Shown here piece by piece: positions 46,849 through 64,000 of a stretch of DNA of 64,000 nt. Numbering within the stretch: position 1 is the first letter of the stretch; the number at the start of each line of letters is the position of its first letter. This DNA comes from Escherichia phage EK8, in sequence record PQ805430.1; one strand, given 5' to 3'. The notes under the pieces are model-generated. The model did no database searches. It worked only from the letters and a program-made list of their open reading frames with translations, and was not told the origin of the DNA. Position numbers and translations under genes: made by a program.

Positions 46849-46863
46849 ATTGTGAGGTTCCCG

Positions 46864-49638
46864 ATGGGATTATTCGGCAGTAAGAAAAAGACCTACCGTG
46901 ACCTGTCGTATTCCCGGCTTATCGAAGATGACTATCTGCCGGATGTTATCGGCCAGGCCATTACCACCTATGTACTTGACGAAGACAACACGTCCAGCCT
47001 TGCTGACCTGATGATTGAGTATGGGTGGAAAAGTAACGCAGTTAAATGGAATGCTGCTTATCGCTGGGCAAGTAAACCAGGTAAGTATGCTTATGGCGTG
47101 CCATCGGCATCCATCGTAAACCAGACGGATTTTACCGGGGCTGCATCCCTCAATGAGGTATTGGAGTCACTGACCGGGCAGACCAATCTGAATTACATCT
47201 ACAGCAAATTCGGCTCCATCAACATGCGTCATGCCATGTGGCAGTTGCTGATTAGCCAGTATTCCTATAACCCAACTACCAACCAGCTTAACGGGCTGAA
47301 TGCTTCGTTGGGGGCTACGGCATATCTGTACTCAGCCAAATCATTCTTCAATGCACAAGTCTGGTTACTGGCAGATCCGTTTACTCTGGAACACTGGGGC
47401 TTCTCCCCGGAATCCGGTGCAACGCAGAACCGTGCTCAGAACCTGGCCGCTGCTGATGTGCCCGATGGTACTGCCATTGGCCAAGAGAACTATACCCGTG
47501 TGGAATACACCTTCCGCTTCACTGGTTTGACCAAGACTGACGTTGTGACGACCACGGAAGTAGAGACTACCGTTCGTACACCGAATGAATCTGGTGGCTA
47601 CGACAATGAGACTACGACCACCAGCAGTGATTCTACAACCTCGACGACGGATAATAACGGGCAGACTCTGCCTCCAGCATCCAACATCATAAGCCAGGAT
47701 AAGACAGTAACGGATACCACTACCAATACTGAAACTGACGATCCTACCACCACCACGACTACTGACCCGGATACCGGCGTCATTACCATTGTGAAGACTA
47801 CCGTTAGCCGTAAGACTACGGTTACGACTTCCAGCAATGATGTGGTGGCATTTTTCAATATGGGCTTCGGCCAGTACGATTATTCTTCTGATCTGTTCGT
47901 CGATACCACAACGGTACTGGACGACAACGATATGAATAACTATGACCCGAATGCTGTACTGGATCCGTCCGGGGAAAGTGTGGGTGGGGATGATGACTAT
48001 TTCCAGGTGCTGTATACCTATGCCGTGGGTGATACTACACACATCGGTTATTTCACCTATCAGTATGGTTCCGGTAACTATCCAGACCTGGATGGCATCT
48101 CTGATACTACAGTAACGGATTTTGGTAAGTCATACCCTCGAATGTATTTCCGACTGAATGGCAACAAGTTATCCGATTCACGTTATGTGGATACGGCTGC
48201 TTATAAGACCTCCATCAAGTTCGGCAAGAAACTTGATATGGACTGGCTTGAGATCTTGGGCAAGATTTATGACAGTCTCAGTTCTTTGAAAAAAATTCGT
48301 GACGTACTGATGATCCAGTGTGTTCCGGCCAATACCAGTAACAAACTGGAGCAGGAATATCTGTTCCGTTATTTCAAAACGCTATATGGCATCCGACCTG
48401 TTATAACCGATTCGAATATCGGTACAACGACCGTAATGGGTGACGGTGGGGGTAGTTCTACCCGTCCAACCACTGATTACGATACGTATGCTGCTCATGC
48501 CGGTACGACTATGAAGTCCACTGATGGGACGATTAACGTCTACAACTCAATGGATGCTATCGGCTGGCGAAGCATTACAGGAACGATTGGCCCGGTCGGT
48601 TCAGTGGCCTCCGGGCGGGGTACTGGTACTAAGCTCGTAATTTACAAGCGTACTACCAGTGACGACCGAGGTAAGACCTCAACCCAGACGACATATGGCA
48701 CGGCAAACACCAGCTACCACTACTACCGTATGCAGGTTTCTGCCACGGTATACGAGGAAGTCCGGGTGTATGAGTTAAGTCATAAAGTCGATGTAGGTGG
48801 TAAAGGGGTAGGGCGATCCGGTGACAGTGATGAACTGATGGTTCCACTGGATTACGCCTTCCGTAAAGAGTTCTCCCCACATGAGCGTGAAACCCTCTAT
48901 GCACGGGCAACCCACATTCTGATCTGTACGGAATACACGGTTAAAACCAAATGGTATCAATCGGGTATTTTCAAAGCAGTAGTTGTGGTGATTGCTGTTG
49001 TGCTGTCCTGGTGGACAGGAGGTGCGTCTCTTACGCTCATCGGTGCGGTTACTGCTGCTGCTACAGCGATAGGGGCTATGATAGTTATGTCCCTGCTCAG
49101 CAAATATGTGTTCAGTAAGCTGGGTGGGGTATTTGCTATTATCGCTACCGTGGTAGCTATAGCTGTTGCTATATACACTGGTTATCTATATCTGACTAGC
49201 ACAACAGGGCCGTTCAGTGTTACAGCCACTCAAATGATGCAGGTAAGTAATGTTGCATTCCAAGCGGCTCAGTCTGCTCAGCAAGGTGCTATCGCCAAAG
49301 AAATGCAGAAAATTGCTACGCTGGAAGAAGAGATCGCCGATAAGCAAGAAGCGTTGAAAGTAGCCCAGAAGGAACTAACTAATCCTTACAATACCATCGA
49401 AGATGGTGTGTTTCTTAAAGCGCTTCAAGGTTACGCTTACCTGGGAGAGAAACCGCAGGAATACTATGCTCGTACCCTAAATACTAACATTGGTGCTGAA
49501 ACAAATAACCTGGTTGAAATGTATTACAGCCAATCTATCCAGCTTCCTTCGGATGTGGCTATTAACCAGCTTATACTGCAAAATATACAAAGACCGTTCG
49601 AACTCTTCAATGAGTTAAGCAATCTTATTAACCAATAG
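46864..49638 (+). CDS. large virion protein, Thr-rich with C-terminal TM helices (possible ejection protein)
   Basis: 924 aa from ATG 46864 (track start 46852 is GTG); long Thr/Ser-rich tract; hydrophobic VVVIAVVLSWW / LTLIGAVTAAATAIGAMIVM / VFAIIATVVAIAVAIY near C-terminus. Confidence 0.55.
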   Translation: MGLFGSKKKTYRDLSYSRLIEDDYLPDVIGQAITTYVLDEDNTSSLADLMIEYGWKSNAVKWNAAYRWASKPGKYAYGVPSASIVNQTDFTGAASLNEVLESLTGQTNLNYIYSKFGSINMRHAMWQLLISQYSYNPTTNQLNGLNASLGATAYLYSAKSFFNAQVWLLADPFTLEHWGFSPESGATQNRAQNLAAADVPDGTAIGQENYTRVEYTFRFTGLTKTDVVTTTEVETTVRTPNESGGYDNETTTTSSDSTTSTTDNNGQTLPPASNIISQDKTVTDTTTNTETDDPTTTTTTDPDTGVITIVKTTVSRKTTVTTSSNDVVAFFNMGFGQYDYSSDLFVDTTTVLDDNDMNNYDPNAVLDPSGESVGGDDDYFQVLYTYAVGDTTHIGYFTYQYGSGNYPDLDGISDTTVTDFGKSYPRMYFRLNGNKLSDSRYVDTAAYKTSIKFGKKLDMDWLEILGKIYDSLSSLKKIRDVLMIQCVPANTSNKLEQEYLFRYFKTLYGIRPVITDSNIGTTTVMGDGGGSSTRPTTDYDTYAAHAGTTMKSTDGTINVYNSMDAIGWRSITGTIGPVGSVASGRGTGTKLVIYKRTTSDDRGKTSTQTTYGTANTSYHYYRMQVSATVYEEVRVYELSHKVDVGGKGVGRSGDSDELMVPLDYAFRKEFSPHERETLYARATHILICTEYTVKTKWYQSGIFKAVVVVIAVVLSWWTGGASLTLIGAVTAAATAIGAMIVMSLLSKYVFSKLGGVFAIIATVVAIAVAIYTGYLYLTSTTGPFSVTATQMMQVSNVAFQAAQSAQQGAIAKEMQKIATLEEEIADKQEALKVAQKELTNPYNTIEDGVFLKALQGYAYLGEKPQEYYARTLNTNIGAETNNLVEMYYSQSIQLPSDVAINQLILQNIQRPFELFNELSNLINQ

Positions 49639-51225: not shown

Positions 51226-54200
51226 ATGGCAGACTCTCTGTTGTCCCAGGCTCTTAATGCTTTAAGCAACGGCGAGTTCACCAATCCTACCGAAGCTGTT
51301 TCCGTTCCGCAGGCTGCTCCCCAGCAGCCTGTCTCCAAAGATTCTCAAGTCCTTGACGCCACCCAACGTATTAATACTGGCTTTGCTGCTAAGGGCATCT
51401 ATCCGTCTATCTCTGGTGAAATCGAACGTTTAAATCAGCAAAAAGCAGGACGTGAACAAGTCGTTCAAGCATACGAAGAAGATATGCAACGTCTGGTTCC
51501 AACCAACGCTTTAGAGTCTGGTTCCCCGGTAATTCGCACCGGTGCCCAGATTACCAACGCAATGGCTGGTTTCGGCAGTTCAATTGCACGTATCGCTCTC
51601 CAGGTGAAAAACCTTAACAATCTCGGTGCTGTAGCTGCCGGGATGGACGGTGCCACCGATGAAGAAAAACTCGCCTTTAACCGTGAAGCCACTCAACGTG
51701 GTGCTGAGGCTGCTGCACTGGTAGGCAATAATGCCCGTCGTGTTCAGGATATCCTCGGCGGTGTTCCGGGTGCGTCTGCTAAGGCGATTGCCGAAGCATC
51801 TGAAATCCCGAATCAGCTTAAGGCTTACCCTTCTGATACCAACCTGCTTGACCGTGAGATTCCTCGTGGTGCAGCAAAAATTCCTTCTGCAACTCAGGAC
51901 GATTCTCTTCTGGGTTCGGTAGGTCAATACTTCAATAACCTGAATGATCGACTTGTCGGATCGGTAAATGGCATGACTGGTGAAGACCAGACCGGCCAGA
52001 CTGAATCTGTACGTGACCGACTGCAACGTGCTCAGACTGCCCTTACCCAAACTCAGAAATCCCTGGGTAACACTGCACAAGGCGTCGATAACGAATGGGG
52101 AACGGACTCCTGGGTTAACCGTGAACAAACTCAACGTATGGCTCAGCAACTGGAAGAAGAGAATAAAGATCTCTCCATCCCTGGTGCTATTGCTAACACT
52201 GTTGGGGAATATCTGGCTAACCCTTCACTGGTTATCCAATCTGCCGCAGAGTCCTTACCTTACGCACTTGGTCGTGTCGGTATCATTGCCGGTACTACCG
52301 GTCAGGCGGTACAAAACCAGACTGATGGTTACCGTGGTCAGGCAGATGGACAGCTTCCTACTGATGAGCAAATCAGTGATGTAACCCGACTCAATGCGTT
52401 GCATTCTGGTTTGAACTTTGTGGAGAACGTAGTCAATGCACGCGCTCTTACCGGTCTTAGCAATGCTGCTATCACTGCTCCACTTCGCCGTGGTGGTGAA
52501 GCACTGGCTGATACTGCCCTCGGACGAGCGATTACCAACGCTGTCGCTCGGAATGGCGTATCTCGTGCTGCTCTGGCAGCAGGGCGAGCAATTACTCCCG
52601 AACCTGTTAGGGAACTTGGCCTGACTATGGCCATTAACGGTCTGACCGAAGCTGCACAAAATCAGATCGAAACTCGCAACCTGCTCGGTGATGATCGCTG
52701 GGATACCGAAGGCAACATCAATGCTGGTGTGCTTGGTGCCCTGTCTGCTGGTGTAATGACTGGCCCATCTACTCTGGCGGCTGGTGCCGGTGCCGTAGGT
52801 GAGCGTATTGCCCGTGCTGCTCAGGAACGTCGTGACGCTGCTAACCCACAAGCTGCCGAAGCTCGTCGTGCTGCACAAGACGCTGCTAAGCCGTTTGAAG
52901 ATCTGACCAACCCGGAACATGCGGATTACAACCCGCAGGCTGCTATTCGCCAACAGACCAACGTGTTTGCTGATGAATCAACTACTCCTGAAGTACGTCA
53001 GGCTGCTATCGACCGTGCTCAGTCCGTCCGTGATTCTGCCGAACAGAACCTGGCTTCGGTTACTGATGAAGTACGCCAAATCCAGAAAGATATGGCTACC
53101 CGTCAGGAAATCGAACGTCGTCTGGAAGATATCCAGACCAACCCGGATTCTGAGTACAAAGGTAGCGAAGCTCAACTGACCACTATCCGTGACCAGATTG
53201 ATGAGCGTATGCCGGATGAAGCTGCTCAACAGGATCTGGTTTCCCGCTTCCAGGCTGCAAACGAAAACGTTGAACGTGTGCGTAGTGCCTACGATCAGTT
53301 TGAGAATGCTGCTGGTCTGCGTGAACGTCAGGCTCCAGAAGAAGCTCAGGCTCAGATGGATACTGCTACCAATCCTGATGCAACTCAGGAACAGGTTGAT
53401 ACGGCTGCTGACCATGTGGTTACGCACCCTATGCAGTACACCCCGGAACAACTCCGTACTCTGGCCGATGATACGACCAACCGTTTCAGCGACACTCAGC
53501 GTGAAGCGATTCGTAAACTGGCTGATGCCCGTGTTGCCCAGAACAACCTGAAAGATGATCTGCGTGTAAACCAGGATATTATGCAGGGTGGTAAGGGCTA
53601 CCGTTCCCTGGGTGAATACACCTCTGCTTATGCTGCTGCTATCCGTTCCGGTGATAAGACTATGGCTACCAACCTGCGTGAGCAGTTAGGTCGCTTCCAG
53701 GCTTCTCATGAACAGAAAGCTGCCGTTGCTCAGCAAATGATGGACTCTGGTAACTACGGCCAGCTTATCCGTCAGAACAGTCAGTGGGTGGCTAACGAAG
53801 GTAAGAAACTTCGTGGTAAAGATAAGACCCGTAACGGTGCTCTGGATATTCATTCTGGCTCCGGTCGTCTGGTTGCTCGTCTTCAAGAAGAAGCCGAAGC
53901 AATCCGTGCAACTTCCGCTGCCCTGGATGCAATGTCTCAGGCTCGTCCGGCTGCTCCCGCTACCGCTCCGCAGCCGTCCTCCCCTGCACCAGCGAACGAC
54001 GCAACCACAACGGTGGAGGCGAAGCCGGAACCGGCAGTGGTGGAGTCGGAAGCGACTGTTACCAAATCATCCCTCTCTCACTATGCCAATGACGGCGTAC
54101 TGACTCAGGATGCTGATGGTGATATGGCTCTGCGTCTGGATCAGTTCTCTCCGGCTGAACAACAGTTCCTGCGTGACAACAATATGGTTGATGCTCAGAA

Positions 54201-57200
54201 CATGGTTAAAGCTGCTTTCTTACGCCGTGCTGAACCGCGTAAAGATGACGCCCATAAACCACGTACTCTGAACCAGCAAGACCGCATTGCCCCGGCAGAA
54301 CAACAGACTCAGCAAGAGCAGGTACAGGCTCAGGATACCAATGAGAATGACCCTACTCCGGCCAGCACTGTAGAAACCGACACCAACGTAACTACCGATC
54401 AGACTACGGCAACGAAGACTGACGAGAACACGAAGGCAGACGGTGCTACCCGTGTCCTACGTCCAGAAGGTAAATCTCTGGAGACTGCCCGTACCGAAGA
54501 ACGAGCTAAGCCATTCTCAGAACAGAACCTTGTTCTCACTGGTTTCGTTCAGCGTGTCCGTGAAGGTTTCGTTAACCCACTGGTTACCGTTGAAAACTTC
54601 ATGTCCAGCGTTATGGATAAAGCTGACTGGTCTGGTCGCTTCACCGAAGTGAACCGTTACCTTGCTCAGCCGATGAACGCTGCCCAGAAGAATCTGGTCG
54701 GTATGTTCACCAAATTCCATAAAGCAGTGGAAGGTGATATCGATCCTGCTATTAAACAGAAGATCGGTAAAACCCGTGGTGGTCTGGATCGCTCTGCTTA
54801 TAACTACCAGGATTTTGTCCAGTTTCTTACCACTGACGGTAAACTGGATGAAAACACGAAGACGGCCCTGACCGCCTCTATGTTCACCTGGCTTGCAGAG
54901 AACGGTAACAAGCTCATCGCCACTCGTGACGATATGGCTGGCCTGTTCCATATGGATAAAGGTGAAGTACCGGTAGAGATCCATAATCGCTTCTCTGAGA
55001 TCGGTTCTTCTCAGCGTGCTGTTATCCAGTCCCTTGGCCAACGTGCTTACCAGATGCTGGGCTTCAAGGTACTGAAAGACGTTGACCCTAACCGTGCTGG
55101 ACGTATGCAGCAAGCTCTCGGCATGTACGCAATGCACGTTATGATGAAACGTGGCTACCTGGAGCAGACAACTATGACTGCTCGTGAGTACGCCGACGTT
55201 ATCACTACTGGTTTGGATCCTGAAGCTGCTCAGGCTAAACGTGCAGAGTTTGCTCGTGACTTCCTGAATGGTGAGTCCATCGATAAAGCGAAAGAGACAT
55301 TCAACTTTGTTCGTGTACCACGTAAAGAAGTAAACGGTAAACTCGTACCGGCAGATAACATTGCCCGTATCGTTGAAGCCAACAAAGGGACTTCCGGGGT
55401 TATGAGCAAGCTGTTTAGCTTTGACTCATCCCAGACTTTCCCGTTGACTAAGAAGCCAGGTAAATTCATTCAGAATACCGTAGGTGACTTTGGTCAGCAG
55501 GTTCCTTCTGAATTGGCAGAACGTCTGACTAAAGCCCAGCAACAACCGTACCGGATCAATGAGTCCCTGGTTAACGCCATGAACACGATCCGCAATGTGG
55601 ATGAAGCTGCATTGCTGCACATGATGGGTGTTCGTACTGAGACAGAAACTCCGTTCATGCACGCTCGTGACCGTATCGGGCAGCAGGCCAAAAACGACGA
55701 TATCATTCGTGCTCTGGCTAATGCTGATGAGGTAATGGGTACTCTGGATTCCATCGACCAGCAGATCTATATGCCGCTGGCAGTATGGAGTAACAACCGT
55801 GTCGGCGTAGCGTCCAACATGCTCAACCCGCAGGGGAACAAAGTTCACCGTGCAATGGTAGGCATGGAAGCACACCGTGTTGATATCCCGGTAAACCAGG
55901 CACCAATCGACGCCAACGGTAACATCACTGAGTACGGCCAGTTCTTACTGACTGTGGCTCAGGGTATGGAAGAGGCGCCGATCAAGAAACCAGGCACTAC
56001 TGATAAGATGCCTACGGTTGATAAAGTGACTGGTGGTACTTATCTGCAAGGTATGCAGGAATACCTGAAAAGTGACAGCGTTCGTGCTGGCATTAAAGCC
56101 ATGCAGAATATCGTTGAGGGTAACTCCACTCCGCGTGATATCGAAACCGTTAAGCAAACCGTTGCCGAATTTGGCATGGGGCCACACTCCTTCCAGTCAC
56201 TCCATGCACTGGCTCTGGTTAACCAGGCTCGTGAACAGGGTGCTGAAAAAGTGCAGGTTGCTATCGGTGGCGAATCAGATGGTGTCACCAACGGGCCGAT
56301 CCTTACCAATGTGCTCTATGGTACGGCAGACACTGACCTTCTCGCTCGTGGTGGCCTTTACACTGCTGACGCTGGTGTTACCAACGTACCGCAGTACCGC
56401 GAACAAGGTGGGCAGGACTACTACCAGTTATTGGGGACAGCTCAGAAGGAAGCATGGGATGCCATGTATCCTCCGACGACTGGCCGGGTAACGGATCAGA
56501 ACCAGAAGTTCCGTCGTGCAATTGATTACTTATCTCCTGGTTTCGGCTCTCGTTCGAAAGCCAAAGTACAGGCTACCCCATTCAACTACGGTTCCGGTAT
56601 GGACTCGCTCAAGCGAGCAAGTGCCAGAGACACCATTGATAGTGTCTACGGTCATATCACTGATATTGCCGAAGCCTATAGCCGTTCCAAAGTTGAGGGT
56701 GATTTTGCTCGCCATAAACTGGAGAAAGCAATCGAGATCGTACTGGCCCAGGGCAAGACGCTAGGGATTAAAGTTCCCGCATTTTCCGGCCTGGGTAAAA
56801 CGGAATCACTGTTAACCACCGAATTGCCACGTCCAATTGTGGACGCGATTATGCAGATCGATATGGCTATCCGTGGTGAAGCATCCGAGACTGCGATTGA
56901 GCGTGTTGCTGCTCACTACATCAAAACCCGTGACACTAACACTGCGATTACTAATGCAGCGTTTGAAGTGGGCAAAGTTGTACGTGACCGTGCAGAGGCT
57001 CTGGCTCTGGAACAGGCAGTTAAAGACGGGCAAGTAGGTTCCATCAACGATATCGCCGTAGAAGGCTTATCGACTGATGCAAAAGCTAACCTGTCTGAAC
57101 AACTGCGTGAAGCCAGTGCTATCGTCCCTACCGCTACCGGATCCCTTTCCAAAAATAAACTGGAATCAGGTTACGTGGCTGCTAAGGTCGGTACTACCTT

Positions 57201-60200
57201 CAAAACCAATGACCCAACCACCGAGGTATATGCCTCGTTCCGTGAGGGTGCTAACCCTACTGGTACTGGCTTAACCAACACCAAACCGACGACCTTTAAG
57301 GACGTAAGATCTGGCGCTCAGGTTAAAGAACAGATCGCTCCGGGTGTGTCTACAAGTGCATTGGTTGTGCAGGGTACTGATGCTGCAATCTCAACTCGTG
57401 TTATCGCTGAGCGTCCGGCTCAGAACTTCCATGATGCGAACCTGTTCGCTATTACGGATATGATTGAAGGTGCCAAAGCGCAGAACAAAGCCATGTGGGA
57501 TACAGTGGTCGGTTATGACTCTCAGTTAGCGAATACCGAAGCATTAATCCGCACCCTAGAAGGTGTTACCCAACAAGACGGATTAACGTCACTGGATTGG
57601 ATTAATATTGCCGGGTCTTTGCAACAACTGGCTTTCAAGGCTGAACTAATTGGATCCCCTAAAGAGTCCGTATCGGCGGTAGCCGTACTTGGACGGGTAG
57701 TCGGTGATGCTTATAACCGTGAGATTGCCAAGCTCAACACACTCAACGAAGTTGAGTATGTAAACCAGTATGGTTATGAGGGTGGTGAATACCAGGTTAC
57801 TGCTGCCGACCGTAAAGCTCTGGCTGACAAAATTGACTCTCTACGCATATCACGGGATAAAGCGGTTGATAAGGCAATGACTCTTGGCGGTGAACTAAAT
57901 ACCCTGCTACAGCAAGGTACAACCACATCCAAGCGTAAAGCCGATGCTGTTAATGCTGCTCAACGCCGTCAGGCTATTGAACAAGCTGCTGCTGATAGCG
58001 TACCGGTTACCCGTGATGCCAAAGGCAAGAACGCTCTTGAGCGTTTCCTGACTGAAAGCAAAGACGGCACCGTTAATGCTAAAGACCTGATGAACTTTAC
58101 CGTTAAGTCCCTGGCTTCCGGTCGTACTGATGGTTCAGCACTGCAAAGCCGTATGCGTACCACTTACAGCGAACTTGCTAAAGTGCTCGCAGCGACTCTG
58201 CCGGAAAACCTGACCGTTAATATCCTGTCTGCTCAACATAATCCAAAAGGGGTTATGGGTGCTGAGCAGAACGTTAACTCACGAGCATGGTTTTATAGTG
58301 ACGGTAAGGTAAACCAGATCAACATCAAGATGGATGGCCCGGAAGCACCGGGGCTGGAAGTTGTGCTGCATGAAATGCTTCACGCTGCCACTGCCCGTGC
58401 TCTGGATGCTGCTCGCCGTGATCCTAAAGCTAACCCGGCTCTGACCGAAATCGTTGGCCGACTGGAATCACTGCGTAGCGAGATCGAACAGTCCGTACAG
58501 AGTATGCCTCAGTTTGCACCGGCAGTCCGTAACGTGGACGAGTTAATCTCGTGGGGTATGACTAATCCGGCATTTCAGCAACATCTTGATGGTTTGCAGT
58601 CCTCCATGTACCCACGTCAACGCGAAGGTGTACGTGGTCGTCTGGGTTCCATGTTTAAACAGTTTGCCAACACTGTGCTGCGTGCGGTCTACGCCTTTAC
58701 TGGTCGTAAGCCTTCCGCTAAACAGATGACGGCAATGGAAGCCCTAATTCTGGATACTGCTGACGTACTCCAGACTGCCACGGTTAATCCGGGCAATGCT
58801 GGTAACGTTAATCTGGCAATGGCCTCATCTACCCGTGCAGCACAAACTGCCGGACAGTACACCCATCGCCAGATATTCGATGCTCTGTCGTCCTCGACTG
58901 CTGGTAAGCGGAACACTTCTGCCTTTACCGGAAATCTGGGTAAGATCATCGAAAATGTATCGGATAAACTGTTTAGTCAAATTGGTGGTGATCACCTGAC
59001 CAACCTTCCGGCAGGTCACGGTTATACACCGGGCCAGGTATGGGCGAATGCTCTTACCGGGGGCAAGGCACCGTTCACTACCAAAGCATTGGCTGCTGGT
59101 TTCCACATGACTGACCAGGAAGCATTCGCTATCGAGTCCATTGAGACTGCGGTTGCTGCTGCTCTGGATTCTGGTTTCGGTACTGCTGTGAACCGTGAGA
59201 TCCGTAAATCCTGGGAAGCTGCCCGTAAGCAGGTAACCCCGGAACAGTTCCATAACGGTAACTGGAATACGGCTACCCCGGCAGAGAAAGCTGCTGCACA
59301 AGCAAAGTGGGATCACCTGTTCAAACTGGAAGCCAGCCAGAACGGTAAGAACCGCTACCTCGCACAGTTTGTGGCAATGACTCTGGGTCATGAAGAAACC
59401 AGTAAACTGATGGGCTTCACCAATGAAGTTGCCGATGCTAACGCTCCGGTCACTCCGTTCGAGAAAGCTGCTGCCTTCTTTAACCATTCGGTTAACTGGG
59501 CATCGGGTTACCTGACTCGCACCAACAATGGCCAACTGGTAAACCAGAAGGCTCAGGCACTGGCTCAACAGTTGATTGAAATCGACTTGAAGAACCGTGA
59601 CAAATCCGTTGATGCACTTGAGAAAGCGTTTATCTACGTCAGCGATCTGGGTGAGAAAGCTGGTAATAAAATCTGGGATGCTGCTCATGCAACTGCTGAT
59701 GCGAAACTGATTCGTGAGAACCCTCTCGGTATCGTTCGTATGGCCGGGTCTATTACCCGTCTGGCTGCTAAGCGTAATCTGGATGTGCTGAGCGATACCA
59801 TTCGTCAGGTACGTGATATGAATAACCCGAATACCGCTGATGGTTGGGCTGCTCAAATCCTGTCTGATATCGCTAACCCGGATAAAGTACGTAGTGCGTT
59901 CGAATCGCTGCAACGACACACGAACCTCATTGAACAACGTCGCCGTAATTTCGCAGAAATTACTCGTGGCAACGTGATGGGAGCGTTCGAAAATAACGGT
60001 GAGTATCTGACCAACGAAGATAAAACTGCGTTGTCTTATACCCTGCTGCGAACCGAAGCACACTCACTGCTCAATACCCGCTCCCTGGATGACGTTCAGC
60101 AACTGGTTTCCAGCAAAGCTAAACGTAATGCAGAGATTCGTAATCTGGAGCAAATCGTATTGGCAGATCCGAATGGTAATGATATGGTTATCCGCGCTAA

Positions 60201-62316
60201 AGCACTCGGCTATTATATGGTGACTGGGAAACCAACTGATGTAGGTTTAGCTAAGAATGCACAAGCCATTGCTTCTGGAGCTGGTACTCACTACGTCACG
60301 ACTGGTTTAGCAGACCGCAATGGTGCCCTGACAGAGGCAATAGATCAACTGGCTACTCTGTACGCCATAGACTACTCAAAACCAGAGCATTTATCGGCTA
60401 CTGCTGCCGTCATGAAACGTGAGATGGCTAACCCTTACAATGGCATTAAAGCGTTGCTGAATGTGCATAAAGTGCTGGCCGAGGACGCAGCCTCTACCCT
60501 GTTCCAGGATAACGAGATCTCCCGGATTAAAGGCTACGTTCCAGAGGTAACCAACCCTTATCGTGATGTGAAGATTGTTGAAGAGGGTGACCGTGCTCAA
60601 CGTTCAGAGCTTGAGGCAATGGGGTATCAGTTTGTAGGCATGGTGCCGACTGATCCGACTATCCCAAGCATGGGCAAGAAAGCAATGTACGCCACTAAGG
60701 ACAACGGCTCTCAACGTTACGTGTCTGGTGCTGTGAGCTTAACCAGCAATCAACGTAAAGGTTCGTCGGCTATCCGTAACCAGAACTACCGCAAAGGGCA
60801 AGGCCCGACTGTGGCCGATGGCAGCAAAGCTGTGTATGCCGCTGCTCGTCGCCGTGCTCAAATGAGTTATAAAGACTTTGACCCTACTCAGGTTAAAGAT
60901 ACTTATATGATTCCGGTGTTCGGAACTGATGGCCGTATTATGGACTTCCAGTACGAGATGAATGCCACTAACCGTGACACTCTGCTGGATCGTAACAATG
61001 ACTTTGCACACCTGCTGGGTCAGTACGCAGGGCAGAACTTCGATAAGCTGCATAGCCCGACTCAGAACCGAGTCATTATGGAAGCTTTACACGAAGACTA
61101 CCGATCCAACTACGCTGCCAATCCAGAGCGTTACGTTGCAATTGGGCCACAAGTTGCTGATGCCCGCTCCAGAGAAATCTGGGCTATGCTGCCGCAACAG
61201 ACCCGTTACGACGCTGAATCAATCTGGGGTGCAGGCGAACCTATGCAGGTACGCAGTGATCTGGTCAACCTCGTGTTCGGTTTCCGTAAGCTGACAGTGG
61301 CGAATGCCTTTGATAAGGATGCCCAGGATCGCAATATGGCCGAGTCTTTAGCGACCTCCGTTTTCAACACTCTGGGCCTCCTGACCAATTCCAACGGGAA
61401 AGTCATGGCTGCTCAGACTGAACGTGGTGTTCAAGGGGGTGTTGAACTACTGAAAGATATTATCGTGATCCGTAACGTCACCACTTTGATGCGCAACCTA
61501 GTGGGTAATGCAGCATTGCTGAAAGCCTATGGCGTGTCTCCGACTGATATTGTGAAGGACACCAAGACTGCTTTACAGGCTGGTTTGAGCTACCGCAAAA
61601 ACACTGCACTGCTGCTGAAATACCAACAGCAACAACGTGCAGGTATCGGTAACTACGAACAGCTTGAGCAGAAGATCATTCAACTGGAAGACCAGCTTGC
61701 TCGTAACCCGATCAAGGACTTCATCGAAGCCGGTACTATGCCGAGCATAGTTGATGATGTAGATACTTCTGATACTGCGTATACTTTTACGTCAGGCTTA
61801 CAGCAGAAGATCTCTGGTGTGACTGATAAAATCCCGGCATCTGTACGGACGGCGGCTAAGTGGGCGTTTGTGACTAAAGACACACCGCTTTACAAATTCC
61901 TGTCCAATACCGCTCAGTTCGGTGACTTTACGTCGAAATATGTGCTGTACAAATACAGTATGAATAAGGCGGATACTAAACTGAACCACGCAGAAGCGGT
62001 ACAGCGTGCAACCGATGCGTTCGTTAACTACGACCTGCCGACTTCGCCAGAGTTGCAGTATATGAACGACATGGGTTTGTTCATGTTTACGAAGTATCGT
62101 CTGCGGATCCAGCGTGCAATGCTGACCCTGATGAAGGAACGTCCGGGCACTGCACTGGCTCAATCCGTACTGGTGTCGCGCTTTACCGATGCACCTCCGG
62201 CACTGGAGCCTAACTTAATTACTGGTTTGGGTAATCCGTTCTCATCCGGCGTATTGCAGTTGCCGAATGCACTGACCCAGCCGATGCCGATTAAGTTAAT
62301 CCTCGGATCGCTGTAA
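51226..62316 (+). CDS. virion-encapsidated RNA polymerase (N4 vRNAP-like giant protein)
   Basis: uninterrupted 3696-aa ORF; size and position at end of late structural unit match N4 gp50; catalytic motifs not mapped by eye. Confidence 0.8.
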   Translation: MADSLLSQALNALSNGEFTNPTEAVSVPQAAPQQPVSKDSQVLDATQRINTGFAAKGIYPSISGEIERLNQQKAGREQVVQAYEEDMQRLVPTNALESGSPVIRTGAQITNAMAGFGSSIARIALQVKNLNNLGAVAAGMDGATDEEKLAFNREATQRGAEAAALVGNNARRVQDILGGVPGASAKAIAEASEIPNQLKAYPSDTNLLDREIPRGAAKIPSATQDDSLLGSVGQYFNNLNDRLVGSVNGMTGEDQTGQTESVRDRLQRAQTALTQTQKSLGNTAQGVDNEWGTDSWVNREQTQRMAQQLEEENKDLSIPGAIANTVGEYLANPSLVIQSAAESLPYALGRVGIIAGTTGQAVQNQTDGYRGQADGQLPTDEQISDVTRLNALHSGLNFVENVVNARALTGLSNAAITAPLRRGGEALADTALGRAITNAVARNGVSRAALAAGRAITPEPVRELGLTMAINGLTEAAQNQIETRNLLGDDRWDTEGNINAGVLGALSAGVMTGPSTLAAGAGAVGERIARAAQERRDAANPQAAEARRAAQDAAKPFEDLTNPEHADYNPQAAIRQQTNVFADESTTPEVRQAAIDRAQSVRDSAEQNLASVTDEVRQIQKDMATRQEIERRLEDIQTNPDSEYKGSEAQLTTIRDQIDERMPDEAAQQDLVSRFQAANENVERVRSAYDQFENAAGLRERQAPEEAQAQMDTATNPDATQEQVDTAADHVVTHPMQYTPEQLRTLADDTTNRFSDTQREAIRKLADARVAQNNLKDDLRVNQDIMQGGKGYRSLGEYTSAYAAAIRSGDKTMATNLREQLGRFQASHEQKAAVAQQMMDSGNYGQLIRQNSQWVANEGKKLRGKDKTRNGALDIHSGSGRLVARLQEEAEAIRATSAALDAMSQARPAAPATAPQPSSPAPANDATTTVEAKPEPAVVESEATVTKSSLSHYANDGVLTQDADGDMALRLDQFSPAEQQFLRDNNMVDAQNMVKAAFLRRAEPRKDDAHKPRTLNQQDRIAPAEQQTQQEQVQAQDTNENDPTPASTVETDTNVTTDQTTATKTDENTKADGATRVLRPEGKSLETARTEERAKPFSEQNLVLTGFVQRVREGFVNPLVTVENFMSSVMDKADWSGRFTEVNRYLAQPMNAAQKNLVGMFTKFHKAVEGDIDPAIKQKIGKTRGGLDRSAYNYQDFVQFLTTDGKLDENTKTALTASMFTWLAENGNKLIATRDDMAGLFHMDKGEVPVEIHNRFSEIGSSQRAVIQSLGQRAYQMLGFKVLKDVDPNRAGRMQQALGMYAMHVMMKRGYLEQTTMTAREYADVITTGLDPEAAQAKRAEFARDFLNGESIDKAKETFNFVRVPRKEVNGKLVPADNIARIVEANKGTSGVMSKLFSFDSSQTFPLTKKPGKFIQNTVGDFGQQVPSELAERLTKAQQQPYRINESLVNAMNTIRNVDEAALLHMMGVRTETETPFMHARDRIGQQAKNDDIIRALANADEVMGTLDSIDQQIYMPLAVWSNNRVGVASNMLNPQGNKVHRAMVGMEAHRVDIPVNQAPIDANGNITEYGQFLLTVAQGMEEAPIKKPGTTDKMPTVDKVTGGTYLQGMQEYLKSDSVRAGIKAMQNIVEGNSTPRDIETVKQTVAEFGMGPHSFQSLHALALVNQAREQGAEKVQVAIGGESDGVTNGPILTNVLYGTADTDLLARGGLYTADAGVTNVPQYREQGGQDYYQLLGTAQKEAWDAMYPPTTGRVTDQNQKFRRAIDYLSPGFGSRSKAKVQATPFNYGSGMDSLKRASARDTIDSVYGHITDIAEAYSRSKVEGDFARHKLEKAIEIVLAQGKTLGIKVPAFSGLGKTESLLTTELPRPIVDAIMQIDMAIRGEASETAIERVAAHYIKTRDTNTAITNAAFEVGKVVRDRAEALALEQAVKDGQVGSINDIAVEGLSTDAKANLSEQLREASAIVPTATGSLSKNKLESGYVAAKVGTTFKTNDPTTEVYASFREGANPTGTGLTNTKPTTFKDVRSGAQVKEQIAPGVSTSALVVQGTDAAISTRVIAERPAQNFHDANLFAITDMIEGAKAQNKAMWDTVVGYDSQLANTEALIRTLEGVTQQDGLTSLDWINIAGSLQQLAFKAELIGSPKESVSAVAVLGRVVGDAYNREIAKLNTLNEVEYVNQYGYEGGEYQVTAADRKALADKIDSLRISRDKAVDKAMTLGGELNTLLQQGTTTSKRKADAVNAAQRRQAIEQAAADSVPVTRDAKGKNALERFLTESKDGTVNAKDLMNFTVKSLASGRTDGSALQSRMRTTYSELAKVLAATLPENLTVNILSAQHNPKGVMGAEQNVNSRAWFYSDGKVNQINIKMDGPEAPGLEVVLHEMLHAATARALDAARRDPKANPALTEIVGRLESLRSEIEQSVQSMPQFAPAVRNVDELISWGMTNPAFQQHLDGLQSSMYPRQREGVRGRLGSMFKQFANTVLRAVYAFTGRKPSAKQMTAMEALILDTADVLQTATVNPGNAGNVNLAMASSTRAAQTAGQYTHRQIFDALSSSTAGKRNTSAFTGNLGKIIENVSDKLFSQIGGDHLTNLPAGHGYTPGQVWANALTGGKAPFTTKALAAGFHMTDQEAFAIESIETAVAAALDSGFGTAVNREIRKSWEAARKQVTPEQFHNGNWNTATPAEKAAAQAKWDHLFKLEASQNGKNRYLAQFVAMTLGHEETSKLMGFTNEVADANAPVTPFEKAAAFFNHSVNWASGYLTRTNNGQLVNQKAQALAQQLIEIDLKNRDKSVDALEKAFIYVSDLGEKAGNKIWDAAHATADAKLIRENPLGIVRMAGSITRLAAKRNLDVLSDTIRQVRDMNNPNTADGWAAQILSDIANPDKVRSAFESLQRHTNLIEQRRRNFAEITRGNVMGAFENNGEYLTNEDKTALSYTLLRTEAHSLLNTRSLDDVQQLVSSKAKRNAEIRNLEQIVLADPNGNDMVIRAKALGYYMVTGKPTDVGLAKNAQAIASGAGTHYVTTGLADRNGALTEAIDQLATLYAIDYSKPEHLSATAAVMKREMANPYNGIKALLNVHKVLAEDAASTLFQDNEISRIKGYVPEVTNPYRDVKIVEEGDRAQRSELEAMGYQFVGMVPTDPTIPSMGKKAMYATKDNGSQRYVSGAVSLTSNQRKGSSAIRNQNYRKGQGPTVADGSKAVYAAARRRAQMSYKDFDPTQVKDTYMIPVFGTDGRIMDFQYEMNATNRDTLLDRNNDFAHLLGQYAGQNFDKLHSPTQNRVIMEALHEDYRSNYAANPERYVAIGPQVADARSREIWAMLPQQTRYDAESIWGAGEPMQVRSDLVNLVFGFRKLTVANAFDKDAQDRNMAESLATSVFNTLGLLTNSNGKVMAAQTERGVQGGVELLKDIIVIRNVTTLMRNLVGNAALLKAYGVSPTDIVKDTKTALQAGLSYRKNTALLLKYQQQQRAGIGNYEQLEQKIIQLEDQLARNPIKDFIEAGTMPSIVDDVDTSDTAYTFTSGLQQKISGVTDKIPASVRTAAKWAFVTKDTPLYKFLSNTAQFGDFTSKYVLYKYSMNKADTKLNHAEAVQRATDAFVNYDLPTSPELQYMNDMGLFMFTKYRLRIQRAMLTLMKERPGTALAQSVLVSRFTDAPPALEPNLITGLGNPFSSGVLQLPNALTQPMPIKLILGSL

Positions 62317-62323
62317 AAAATAA

Positions 62324-62349
62324 AGCCTCCCTATTCGGGAGGCTTTTTA
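62324..62349. terminator. bidirectional terminator after vRNAP gene
   Basis: AGCCTCCC-TATTC-GGGAGGCT followed by TTTTT, A-run upstream. Confidence 0.7.
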
Positions 62350-62510
62350 CTTTCATGGTGCTCTTTCAATGCAGCCACGATAAAAGCGGCAACGATAATG
62401 ACTGCCGCTAAAAGTCCAACCCCATACAGGATGAACTTAAATACCATGAGCGCACCTATCAGAGCCAGGGCACCAAAGATGCCCAATATCCAGTAGATGA
62501 CACTGAGCAT
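62337..62510 (-). CDS. small membrane protein (~57 aa)
   Basis: hand-translated MLSVIYWILGIFGALALIGALMVFKFILYGVGLLAAVIIVAAFIVAAL...; stop inside terminator hairpin; not in ORF track. Confidence 0.3.
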
Positions 62511-62519
62511 CTATGCTCC

Positions 62520-63281
62520 TTAATCAAACAGATCCAACACTGCATCACCGCCAGCCGGTTTTACAAAACCTTCCTCAGTGGAGGTGACAGGTTTACCTGC
62601 ATCCTGAGTCGGAGCCGGGTCAGAAAACAGATCGAGGCTGTCTTCCGATACCTCCGTCTGCTGTTCACCGCCGAACGGATTGGATGCTGCCGTAGTGCTT
62701 TCAGCTTCGCCTTCATCTGCGAACAGATTTTCCGTCTGAGTTTCCACCGACTGCTCGGCTACGCTGCCTGACTGAGTATCAGCGAACAGATCAGTTGCTG
62801 CTTCTGTTCCTGCTCCTGCTGCCGCCGCAACCGTACTCGCTGCCGTCGTCGCTTTATCTGATCCCGTTTCAGGTTTGGTTTCCAGAACTGTTTCGGTTTC
62901 CGTACCTTTGGTTTCAGGCTGCTGCGCGTCCTGGCTTTCGCCTGCGGCTTCGCCAGACGCTTGCTGTGGTTGCTGAGTTTCTGCTGCTTGTTTAGCTTTC
63001 GCTTCATCGGCTGCAATTTCCTCTTTGGTGCGACGTTTACGACGCTTACGCGGAGTTGCAGGTTCAGCTTCACCAGTCGGTTTAGCTTCGCTTTCAGCTA
63101 CCGGATCAGTGTCGTCATCGTCGAAAGTGCCCTGGGGAACTTCCTCACCGACGCCAGCTACCGCTTTGATTTCGCCACCAATCGGGCCGATGTGAATTTC
63201 AACCGGTGCCAGGCCAGTTTCGGATTTCAGACCTAACAGTACCAGACGTAGAATGTCGTCGGTATTCAAAATGATTTGCAT
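62520..63281 (-). CDS. acidic, largely disordered protein with repeated D-L-F motifs
   Basis: 253 aa; ~45-aa N-terminal module, then Asp/Glu/Thr/Ala-rich low-complexity tail with TDLFAD, ENLFAD, LDLFSD, VLDLFD; basic RKRRKRR patch. Confidence 0.5.
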   Translation of the reverse strand: MQIILNTDDILRLVLLGLKSETGLAPVEIHIGPIGGEIKAVAGVGEEVPQGTFDDDDTDPVAESEAKPTGEAEPATPRKRRKRRTKEEIAADEAKAKQAAETQQPQQASGEAAGESQDAQQPETKGTETETVLETKPETGSDKATTAASTVAAAAGAGTEAATDLFADTQSGSVAEQSVETQTENLFADEGEAESTTAASNPFGGEQQTEVSEDSLDLFSDPAPTQDAGKPVTSTEEGFVKPAGGDAVLDLFD

Positions 63282-63286
63282 CTGGA

Positions 63287-63850
63287 TTATTCCTTCTTGG
63301 CTACCATAGCCATAGTTTTAAAGAGATCGGTTTCCATCGCTGCGTAGATCGCTGCAATGGCATCAGCCATGTGTTCAGCGAGGCTTGCATTCACCTCGCC
63401 CCGGTGCATAGGCCACGGTGCCTCCGGGTGCTTAGCCATTGCCCAAGCAATTGCCTGGGCTTTGGTTGCTTCCCTGGTGCCGGTAATTACCATTCTGGTT
63501 TCGATAGCGTTAACTTCGATCAGAGGTACGCGGGTATTTGAAGCCAGACTGAGTATACCGATACAAACGCCATACCCGGCCATAGCACGGGCAGATTGAC
63601 TACCATGAGGGACTTCGGCTGCGATGAGGTCACTTACCCTCATCCTGTCGATAAAGCCCTTAGAGAGCTGTTTAGCGCGGTTTAAATCGATAGCACTCTG
63701 CCGAGTTTGTTTACCCTTTGGAGTTACCGGTCGGATAACGTCCAGCCGTTCAATGATCAGCTTAGACGTTTCCGGGTTGTACAGACCTTCGGCAATGCCC
63801 CAGTTACTAAATGAGGGGTCACACCCCAGGATCCGTAAACCTTTAGGCAT
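63287..63850 (-). CDS. RuvC-like Holliday junction resolvase
   Basis: ATG 63850 (AAGGTGA RBS; track start 63877 alternative); LRILGCDPSFSNWG resembles RuvC N-terminal catalytic-Asp motif; C-terminal EHMADAIAAIYAA resembles RuvC acidic helix. Confidence 0.55.
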   Translation of the reverse strand: MPKGLRILGCDPSFSNWGIAEGLYNPETSKLIIERLDVIRPVTPKGKQTRQSAIDLNRAKQLSKGFIDRMRVSDLIAAEVPHGSQSARAMAGYGVCIGILSLASNTRVPLIEVNAIETRMVITGTREATKAQAIAWAMAKHPEAPWPMHRGEVNASLAEHMADAIAAIYAAMETDLFKTMAMVAKKE

Positions 63851-64000
63851 CGGTATCACCTTCAACCGCTTGCTCAATTTCCTGCTCTACGAACTGGAAC
63901 GGCAGCGTTTTGAAGATGGCACCGGCTACCTGCACACCGGCGATGAACGCATCACGCTCATTAGGTGTCAGCACTTTTTCCTTCCCACGGATGGTGGCTT
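63843..64000 (-). CDS. hypothetical protein, 5'-truncated at window edge
   Basis: open frame running off window end; stop overlaps resolvase start region. Confidence 0.4.
   Translation of the reverse strand, partial: ATIRGKEKVLTPNERDAFIAGVQVAGAIFKTLPFQFVEQEIEQAVEGDTDA

Follow-up and report, generated by a model that had tools for sequence, protein, structure and literature searches.

The 64,000-nucleotide stretch of Escherichia phage EK8 analysed here (PQ805430.1; hereafter the window) carries, at positions 62520-63281 on the minus strand, an open reading frame (ORF) with an ATG start that encodes an acidic protein of 253 amino acids (aa; isoelectric point (pI) 4.1; phrog_27468), which we term an N4 gp47-like protein. 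Its disordered C-terminal part repeats a short Phe-containing motif that, across relatives, changes together with the tail at the C-terminus of the cognate phage SSB (the protein that binds single-stranded DNA), and its middle part overlaps a second ORF in the +1 frame that is probably a gene in its own right. An AAGGA ribosome-binding site lies 9 nucleotides (nt) 5' of the main ATG. The main ORF is labelled 'hypothetical protein' in 16 of 16 matching GenBank records, and its PHROG family is without functional annotation; a Pfam search with the protein gave zero matches at E <= 1, and a search of PDB sequences returned only a trivial match of the basic arm described below to the N-terminal arm of the Pit-1 homeodomain (E 0.19).

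The gene stands directly after a resolvase gene, at the end of a replication/recombination (middle) operon whose order on this strand is primase, Sak4-like ATPase, HNH, SSB, Gam-like, RuvC-like resolvase, the gene under study, membrane protein and terminator. Its upstream neighbour (63287-63877, minus) encodes the RuvC-like Holliday-junction resolvase equivalent to N4 gp46, as identified by phrog_159 (E 7e-33) and by annotations in relatives; its downstream neighbour, the last gene of the operon, encodes a 59-aa membrane protein (62331-62510, minus; phrog_22030). A bidirectional intrinsic terminator, recognised in the sequence at 62322-62346, lies between this operon and a converging 3,696-aa ORF (51226-62316, plus), the virion RNA polymerase (vRNAP). 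Since the window encodes this vRNAP, and since positions 61800-64000 are ~82% identical to Pectobacterium phages CB1/CB3/CB4, Nepra and phiA41 and Kosakonia phage Kc283 (Schitoviridae, genus Cbunavirus), the window is, as judged from its sequence, that of an N4-like phage of the Schitoviridae, near Cbunavirus. Upstream of the resolvase the window ends within the Gam-like end-protection gene, whose C-terminal part occupies 63843-64000 (minus). The SSB gene lies beyond it, outside the window; the SSB tail was therefore taken from relatives, with the 93-95% identical L012 (...AGQNDLFL) standing in for the window.

Architecture and conserved motifs

The first-pass annotation had described a short N-terminal module followed by disordered, Asp/Glu/Thr/Ala-rich acidic sequence bearing four D-L-F motifs and one RKRRKRR stretch, and that picture is borne out. 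The composition is strongly biased (37 Ala, 32 Glu, 28 Thr, 23 Gly and 20 Asp, with no Trp, Tyr or Cys), Asp plus Glu number 52 against 19 Lys plus Arg, and the net charge is -33. AlphaFold2 gives a predicted local distance difference test score (pLDDT) of about 90 for residues 1-60 versus less than 50 for residues 65-78 and 104-199, with a moderate helix at residues 86-102 and values of 60-70 for residues 233-252. The folded N-terminal domain (N-domain; aa 1-55, 63117-63281; this and all following parts of the protein on the minus strand) comprises, in the AlphaFold2 model, a helix at 7-22 and a beta-hairpin at 29-42. It gave no significant match to solved folds or viral predicted folds, the significant matches of a Foldseek search against BFVD being limited to the protein's own family. 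There follow the basic arm PRKRRKRR (aa 77-84), which contains the annotated basic stretch, and the helix TKEEIAADEAKAKQAAET, together aa 77-102 (62976-63053); the pattern RRxRRT..I.ADEA is invariant in the family, and arm and helix are kept also in relatives that lack the overlapping ORF.

The C-terminal part carries four SSB-tail-like motifs: TDLFAD (motif 1, aa 163-168, 62778-62795), ENLFAD (motif 2, aa 184-189, 62715-62732, the least conserved copy), SLDLFSD (motif 3, aa 215-221, 62619-62639) and the C-terminal VLDLFD-COOH (aa 248-253, 62523-62540), the last corresponding to the xLF tail found at the end of nearly all gp47-like proteins examined. All four lie where the first-pass annotation had placed them, but they are strictly three DLF and one NLF, and two invariant motifs had been overlooked. 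These are SNPFGG (aa 200-205, 62667-62684), which matches the DNPF[LM]-COOH SSB tails of some relatives, and GFVKP (aa 238-242, 62556-62570), with an invariant G-F-x-K-P and short beta-strands in the AlphaFold2 model (pLDDT 60-70). Four [DN]LF motifs occurred in none of 200,000 composition-preserving shuffles, and four LF within residues 55-253 in one of 200,000.

The motifs are kept across 55 homologues, down to about 30% identity, in which F166, P202-F203, L218-F219, G238-F239, P242 and L251-F252 are invariant. Invariant or nearly so in the same set are the N-terminal ~55 residues, an F-D pair, the RRxRRT..I.ADEA pattern, the first LF motif, N-P-F, the third LF motif, G-F-x-K-P and the C-terminal L-x-L-F. 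Motif copy number differs among family members. Of the aromatic residues, essentially Phe alone occurs in the disordered part of each of 23 divergent members (one Trp or Tyr occurs in two members), and each such Phe lies within a short conserved motif, in nearly every case [DN][LIM]F, xPF or GFxKP. Ordinary main-frame coding evolution is seen in the functional parts of the protein, namely the N-domain, the basic arm and the array of C-terminal motifs (aa 163-253).

Relation to N4 gp47

In N4 the slot after the resolvase gp46 is occupied by gp47 (YP_950525), the same position as that of the present gene, and the order resolvase, gp47-like protein, membrane protein, terminator, vRNAP is common to the window, Nepra, Kc283, N4 and 17 other phages. 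Counterparts of N4 gp47's first ~50 residues occur in 104 phage records, spanning Escherichia, Achromobacter, Erwinia, Pseudomonas, Rhizobium, Stenotrophomonas, Klebsiella, Salmonella and Xanthomonas phages, and in every locus inspected the gp47-like counterpart lies just 3' of a resolvase gene, whether RuvC-type or RusA-type. In Pseudomonas phage ZC03 (L007, 1099-1941), Rhizobium phage RHph_N38 (L011, 1207-1902) and Sinorhizobium phage ort11 (L020, 2190-3005) a RusA-type resolvase is fused to a gp47-like module, which forms the C-terminal half of the product. The RusA-type resolvase and the gp47-like protein of Pylas, SP-076 and Pollock are encoded by separate, abutting or overlapping genes, and RuvC-type resolvases are separate from the gp47-like module in all cases.

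Alignment of the N-domain with the N4 gp47-type N-domain by hhalign gave probabilities of 83% (E 8.5e-6) and 87% (E 4e-6), over 27-32 columns only. Like N4 gp47, our protein is encoded between the resolvase gene and that for a small membrane protein, followed by the converging vRNAP gene, and combines a ~55-aa N-domain starting MQ[IV]xL..[DE]I with a basic patch and a disordered, acidic linker running to a C-terminal xLF (...VLDLFD-COOH here, ...SLFAGLKR in the N4 type). The plan of N-domain, linker and C-terminal xLF recurs in 17 N4-type proteins, and most of the minimal gp47-like proteins (64-105 aa) consist of the N-domain, a short linker and an xLF end (e.g. ...KPLFS, ...ALFDG). Unlike N4 gp47, our protein is ~100 residues longer, has four to five motif copies rather than one or two, ends in an acidic (DLF/NLF) rather than a basic (KSLFxxLK) tail, and possesses the invariant RRxRRT..I.ADEA arm, the GFxKP element and the embedded +1-frame ORF.

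On these comparisons the ORF would be the Cbunavirus-type version of the N4 gp47 family, an assignment that forms part of an overall explanation to which, taken jointly, we give slightly more credence than doubt; the protein would then be a new, elaborated variant of a widespread uncharacterised Schitoviridae family. Counting against the assignment, a hidden Markov model search with the N-domain (1.8 billion sequences) found its own subfamily only and no N4-type proteins, and the homology to N4 gp47 consists of the 27-32-column profile match plus synteny.

The N4 reference gp47 (L003, 11679-12113) ends ...EEEKKYRKKRLKNQYKPNLLCLQV, which, one residue aside, is the +1 frame of the other Enquatrovirus gp47 genes; these (e.g. 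in phage PMBT57, L004, 1501-1944) end ...EEEKEVQEEEAKEPVQAKPSLFAGLKR, with the family SLF tail. Full-length matches to N4 gp47 were limited to the two N4 records. To judge from these reading frames, the N4 reference probably carries a 1-nt frameshift, either an error or a strain mutation, that removes the tail motif. The 'gp47' of a 2026 Migulavirinae preprint is unrelated, being a tail-fibre chaperone.

Two further observations concern neighbouring genes. A small hydrophobic ORF (46-62 aa) follows the gp47-like gene in many Schitoviridae, being the phrog_22030 gene (62331-62510) in the window; its N4 counterpart (L003, 12133-12300) is unannotated and falls within an apparent 1.5-kilobase gap between gp47 and gp48. 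A metagenomic relative, L032, encodes at 571-789 a 72-aa protein with a Pfam match to the Acb2/Tad1-hairpin family (anti-CBASS/Thoeris sponges), in a gene flanked on one side by the presumed SSB gene, which is truncated at the contig end, and on the other by a 100-aa gene that takes the slot of the Gam-like gene of relatives.

Co-variation with the phage SSB tail

The C-termini of SSB and gp47-like protein resemble each other phage by phage. In the N4 group the SSB ends AAKSLFGKK and the gp47-like protein AKPSLFAGLKR; the corresponding pairs are PTKSLFAK and PTKSLFARN in Pollock and SP-076, NGMSLFD and EKMSLFGDL in QDWS595, and QRTSLFGNKG and QSRSLFGGLK in ort11. In Cbunavirus (Nepra, Kc283, phiA41) an SSB ending GQSDLFL accompanies a gp47-like protein that ends KVLDLFS and carries internal DLF copies, and in L012, the window's closest relative, GQNDLFL accompanies AVLDLFD. 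The divergent relatives L014-L017 pair GQDNLFM with DAINLFA, the internal copies also being NLF, and two relatives whose SSBs end DNPFM or DNPFL have NPF-type motifs, with four xPF in P0055 (EDNPFADA among them) and two in P0040.

This correspondence was quantified by BLOSUM comparison of the five residues before the last Phe between SSB and gp47-like protein in 20 cognate phage pairs, with a permutation test. The mean score was 11.8 for cognate versus 6.5 for non-cognate pairs, and none of 100,000 permutations reached 11.8; when the three Cbunavirus-like pairs were left out, 19 of 100,000 permutations reached the observed value. Within the Nepra replication module a disordered-tail [DN]LF is confined to the SSB and the gp47-like protein, and a scan of the window found no other credible gene with a [DN]LF-type motif at a terminus. 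A 928-aa late-region ORF of the window (46852-49638, plus) starts MRFPMGLFGSKK, which resembles the N4-type SSB tail KSLFGKK, possibly by coincidence.

Several points weigh against reading this co-variation as imitation of the SSB tail. Shared ancestry is not corrected for in the test, and several of the pairs come from related genera; despite this, each of the DLF, NLF, NPF, MSLF and PTKSLF states is a change of its own. An additional hydrophobic residue (Leu at -3, or at +3 in the N4 type), absent from the SSB tail, is present in the gp47-like motifs, so that the receptors of the two proteins need not be identical. Finally, N4-type tails are basic (KSLFGKK) whereas Cbunavirus-type tails are acidic, which makes one conserved host receptor for all of them unlikely.

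N4-type SSBs also begin with a motif of this kind (MSNLFGNL, MSLFGNL, MSTLFGNL or MSNPFGNL, in L003, L006, L018-L022 and L024), and the gp47-like C-terminus (SLF[AG][GN]L) is closer to this SSB N-terminus than to the SSB C-terminus. The N4-type SSB thus has xLF at both ends, possibly for self-association.

A candidate gene in the +1 frame

The embedded +1-frame ORF (62759-63007, minus) covers main-frame codons ~92-174 and would encode an 82-aa polybasic product, MKRKLNKQQKLSNHSKRLAKPQAKARTRSSLKPKVRKPKQFWKPNLKRDQIKRRRQRVRLRRQQEQEQKQQLICSLILSQAA (pI 12.0; 28 Lys plus Arg, three Asp plus Glu). Its ATG (63005-63007) is formed by the main-frame D92-E93 codons (GAT GAA), and a GAGG Shine-Dalgarno (SD)-like core (AAAGAGGAAA; 63020-63023, minus) lies 12 nt upstream. 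The low-complexity middle stretch of the main protein, QAAETQQPQQASGEAAGESQDAQQPETK, is oddly conserved among homologues, which the codon analysis would attribute to selection on the +1 frame. Among residues identical to those of relatives, 93-100% use identical codons in aa 70-174; the corresponding values for the N-domain and the C-terminal part are 33-61% and 55-70%, respectively (relatives below 90% identity). Across aa 101-174 the variability at main-frame positions 1, 2 and 3 is 0.17, 0.14 and 0.06 versus L013 and 0.49, 0.38 and 0.27 versus L014, an order that fits +1-frame selection because main position 1 is the +1 wobble position; the flanks show the normal position-3 excess (0.46-0.72). 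Position 3 of the main frame differs at 4 of 71 central sites, compared with 69 of 148 flanking sites (Fisher p = 1e-10).

At the level of the product, the +1-frame sequence is 50-90% identical among eight relatives, and in 28 of 28 pairs its identity is above that of the main frame for the same nucleotides (e.g. 0.64 vs 0.39). A long +1 ORF (79-96 aa from the conserved ATG) is present in 11 genes, all 11 of which have GGAG, GAGG or AGGAG before the ATG, as against none of the five without it; two of these five have also lost the embedded ATG. In P0033 both SD and ATG have been removed by synonymous changes, with the main-frame KEEIAADEA kept, and in other ORF-less relatives the loss of the SD is accompanied by a changed neighbouring residue. 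Main-frame codon adaptation falls in the overlap, the codon-usage test of the two frames being mildly informative.

Set against this, the composition by itself leads one to expect a +1 frame free of stops, the 10-12 nt between SD and ATG make a long spacing, five family members are without the ORF, and a search of 5.8 billion proteins yielded a single, fragment-derived prediction that corresponds to it. The ORF is absent from the annotations of the records inspected, Pfam and PHROG searches with its product found no match, no comparable +1 ORF was conserved among the N4-type gp47 genes checked, and the virion proteome of CB1 includes neither the main nor the embedded product (PMC6027278).

Alternatively, the signal might not reflect a gene at all, synonymous change in codons 92-174 being suppressed by an RNA or DNA element or erased by recent recombination. 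Mosaicism is conceivable in P0031-P0039, whose N-domains are ~35% identical to that of the window and whose central peptide (aa 97-140) is near-identical, a pattern that constraint from the embedded ORF would fit as well. However, the constraint is not uniform but three-periodic, in the order expected of +1 coding, and persists where main-frame identity is 22-28%, a level at which recombination cannot account for it; the SD-like sequence goes with the long ORF, down to its synonymous removal in one relative without it, and an Rfam scan of 62200-63400 gave sub-threshold terminator-like matches only. We therefore regard such an explanation as unlikely. The embedded ORF is, with reasonable confidence, a gene, probably overprinted, and selection in codons ~92-174 appears to act mainly on the +1 frame; the acidic Gln/Glu/Thr-rich middle of the main protein would then be largely a linker, its sequence dictated by the other frame.

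As in lambda Rz1 within Rz (also in the +1 frame) and the phiX174 overlaps, a complete small ORF with its own SD and ATG lies inside a longer gene, and, as with overprinted phage genes, it occupies a disordered part of biased composition and is limited to a subclade. Unlike Rz1, the predicted product is polybasic and soluble-looking rather than a lipoprotein, and it is unannotated in the genome records inspected.

Possible function of the gp47-like protein

Phages T7 and N4 and the Sak4 annealase provide precedents for SSB tails as docking peptides. T7 gp2.5 and gp4 have a common acidic, Phe-terminated tail that binds T7 DNA polymerase. The C-terminal residues of N4 SSB are essential for activating the host RNA polymerase (RNAP) via beta', in late transcription (PMC4496689), and a phage Sak4 annealase depends on the final six residues of the cognate SSB (PMC5928155). 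On the strength of these precedents we read the gp47-like protein as a multivalent SSB-tail mimic that works with the resolvase, an explanation that, taken as a whole, we consider somewhat better than evenly supported. The motif array ([DN]LF four times and NPF once, ending ...VLDLFD-COOH) would dock on the surface or surfaces that read the SSB tail, and docking would either tether the N-domain and its partner there or compete with SSB. The partner of the N-domain would most likely be the adjacent Holliday-junction resolvase, since it is both neighbour and, in three genera, fusion partner of the gp47-like module. Candidate receptors of the motifs, whose binding we infer, are the phage DNA polymerase, the Sak4-like annealase, the SSB core itself and the host RNAP beta' subunit. 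The extra Leu at -3 (+3 in the N4 type) could give an affinity above that of SSB, and the switch in tail charge would favour a phage receptor that co-evolves rather than a conserved one of the host.

In common with the E. coli SSB C-terminus (SSB-Ct; DDDIPF), T7 gp2.5/gp4 and HK620 SSB, the proposed mimic has a Phe-containing hydrophobic peptide at the end of a flexible linker, and, as in T7, two different proteins of one phage bear the same tail. HK620 SSB/Sak4 offers a further parallel, in that a recombination protein depends on the SSB tail (PMC5928155). Unlike in the E. coli, T7 and HK620 systems, the second tail-bearer is a small resolvase-linked domain and not a replisome enzyme, the motif is repeated internally, and Phe is not the last residue. 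The copied motif is the C-terminus of a gp45-type SSB, which in N4 SSB (gp45) is essential for RNAP activation (PMC4496689); that activation, however, has been seen for N4 and its basic tail only, and the gp47-like proteins are not known to be linked to transcription.

One choice of receptor within the mimic model would make the protein a modulator of host RNAP, its motifs binding beta', whose C-terminus is contacted by that of N4 SSB in activating late transcription, so as to tune or titrate such transcription. The tail motif common to SSB and gp47-like protein is consistent with this, and the basic arm together with disordered partner-binding motifs recalls lambda N. Contact with beta' is, moreover, the only N4 SSB partner interaction we retrieved that needs the C-terminal residues (PMC4496689). 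Modulation of RNAP nevertheless leaves the constant linkage and repeated fusion to Holliday-junction resolvases unexplained, and the tails are basic in N4 (E. coli) and acidic in Cbunavirus (Pectobacterium/Kosakonia), yet beta' would be expected to be highly conserved between these hosts; we judge it decidedly unlikely.

Improbable, too, is a decoy of the host SSB interactome, in which acidic D-[LP]-F motifs would imitate DDDIPF and soak up host SSB-binding nucleases and helicases. The motifs do run in the order acidic, hydrophobic, Phe, the SSBs of some relatives end DNPF[LM], near DIPF, the array is multivalent, and a Gam-like end-protection gene lies nearby. The host tip, however, requires the carboxylate of a C-terminal Phe, and here Phe is internal or penultimate: no copy resembles bacterial DDDIPF-COOH in having a terminal Phe, and Pro-Phe occurs in SNPFGG only. 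Most gp47-like tails are basic (KSLFxxLK), unlike any bacterial SSB tip, and the co-variation is with the phage SSB.

Still less probable is binding to the beta sliding clamp, four xLDLF-like copies sequestering or recruiting DnaN through their resemblance to QL[SD]LF. SLDLF and VLDLF match positions 2-5 of that consensus, so that an xL[DS]LF core is common to our protein and clamp-binding proteins, and Cbunavirus SSB tails read Q-x-x-L-F. The motif (QL[SD]LF or QxxLF) was set aside because its defining Gln is missing: across 80 family motifs the seven commonest residues at the counterpart of position 1 do not include Gln, and Leu stands at position 2 in 24. N4-type tails (AKSLF, RPSLF) fit worse, and N4 replication is independent of Pol III, with N4 gp8 blocking the clamp loader; this phage group is not known to use the host clamp.

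Whilst the first-pass suggestion of an SSB-tail-like partner-binding hub or bait survives, in sharper form, through the co-variation with the cognate phage SSB, its second suggestion, a DNA-mimic anti-restriction protein, has the net charge in its favour and is otherwise barely tenable, given that Ocr and ArdA are rigid, folded and made early and our acidic region is predicted to be disordered rather than a rigid DNA-shaped fold, that no Ocr/ArdA or other family match was found in Pfam or PDB sequences, that the gene lies in a middle replication/recombination operon and not among early anti-defence genes, that conservation centres on hydrophobic motifs and not on the spacing of acidic residues, and that much of the acidic middle is less constrained than the overlapping +1-frame ORF, to which part of it is subordinate or of which it is a by-product.

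A more speculative extension of the SSB-tail mimic, which we regard as a long shot, takes both products of the 762-bp locus together. A polyacidic scaffold showing four to five SSB-tail copies and an 82-aa polybasic protein, two oppositely charged disordered proteins, might form a replication/recombination hub or condensate; with tail-bearing SSB on single-stranded DNA and the resolvase, such a multivalent, charge-driven assembly would couple recombination and branch resolution to late transcription and packaging in N4-like phages, and would control how far the SSB tail can reach host RNAP.

The embedded ORF, polybasic in its product and absent from the annotations inspected, makes a clean candidate for recent overprinting, and relatives in which the SD and ATG are gone with the main-frame sequence unchanged constitute natural knock-outs. 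The gp47-like proteins, present in every Schitoviridae genome inspected and annotated there as hypothetical, now have a testable role, and peptides, Phe mutants and the natural DLF/NLF/NPF/SLF swaps offer handles for mapping their partners. Activation of host RNA polymerase by the C-terminus of N4 SSB is a classic case, structurally still unexplained; a second conserved family with the same co-evolving tail, attached or fused to the Holliday-junction resolvase, points to an SSB-tail interaction network in the Schitoviridae.

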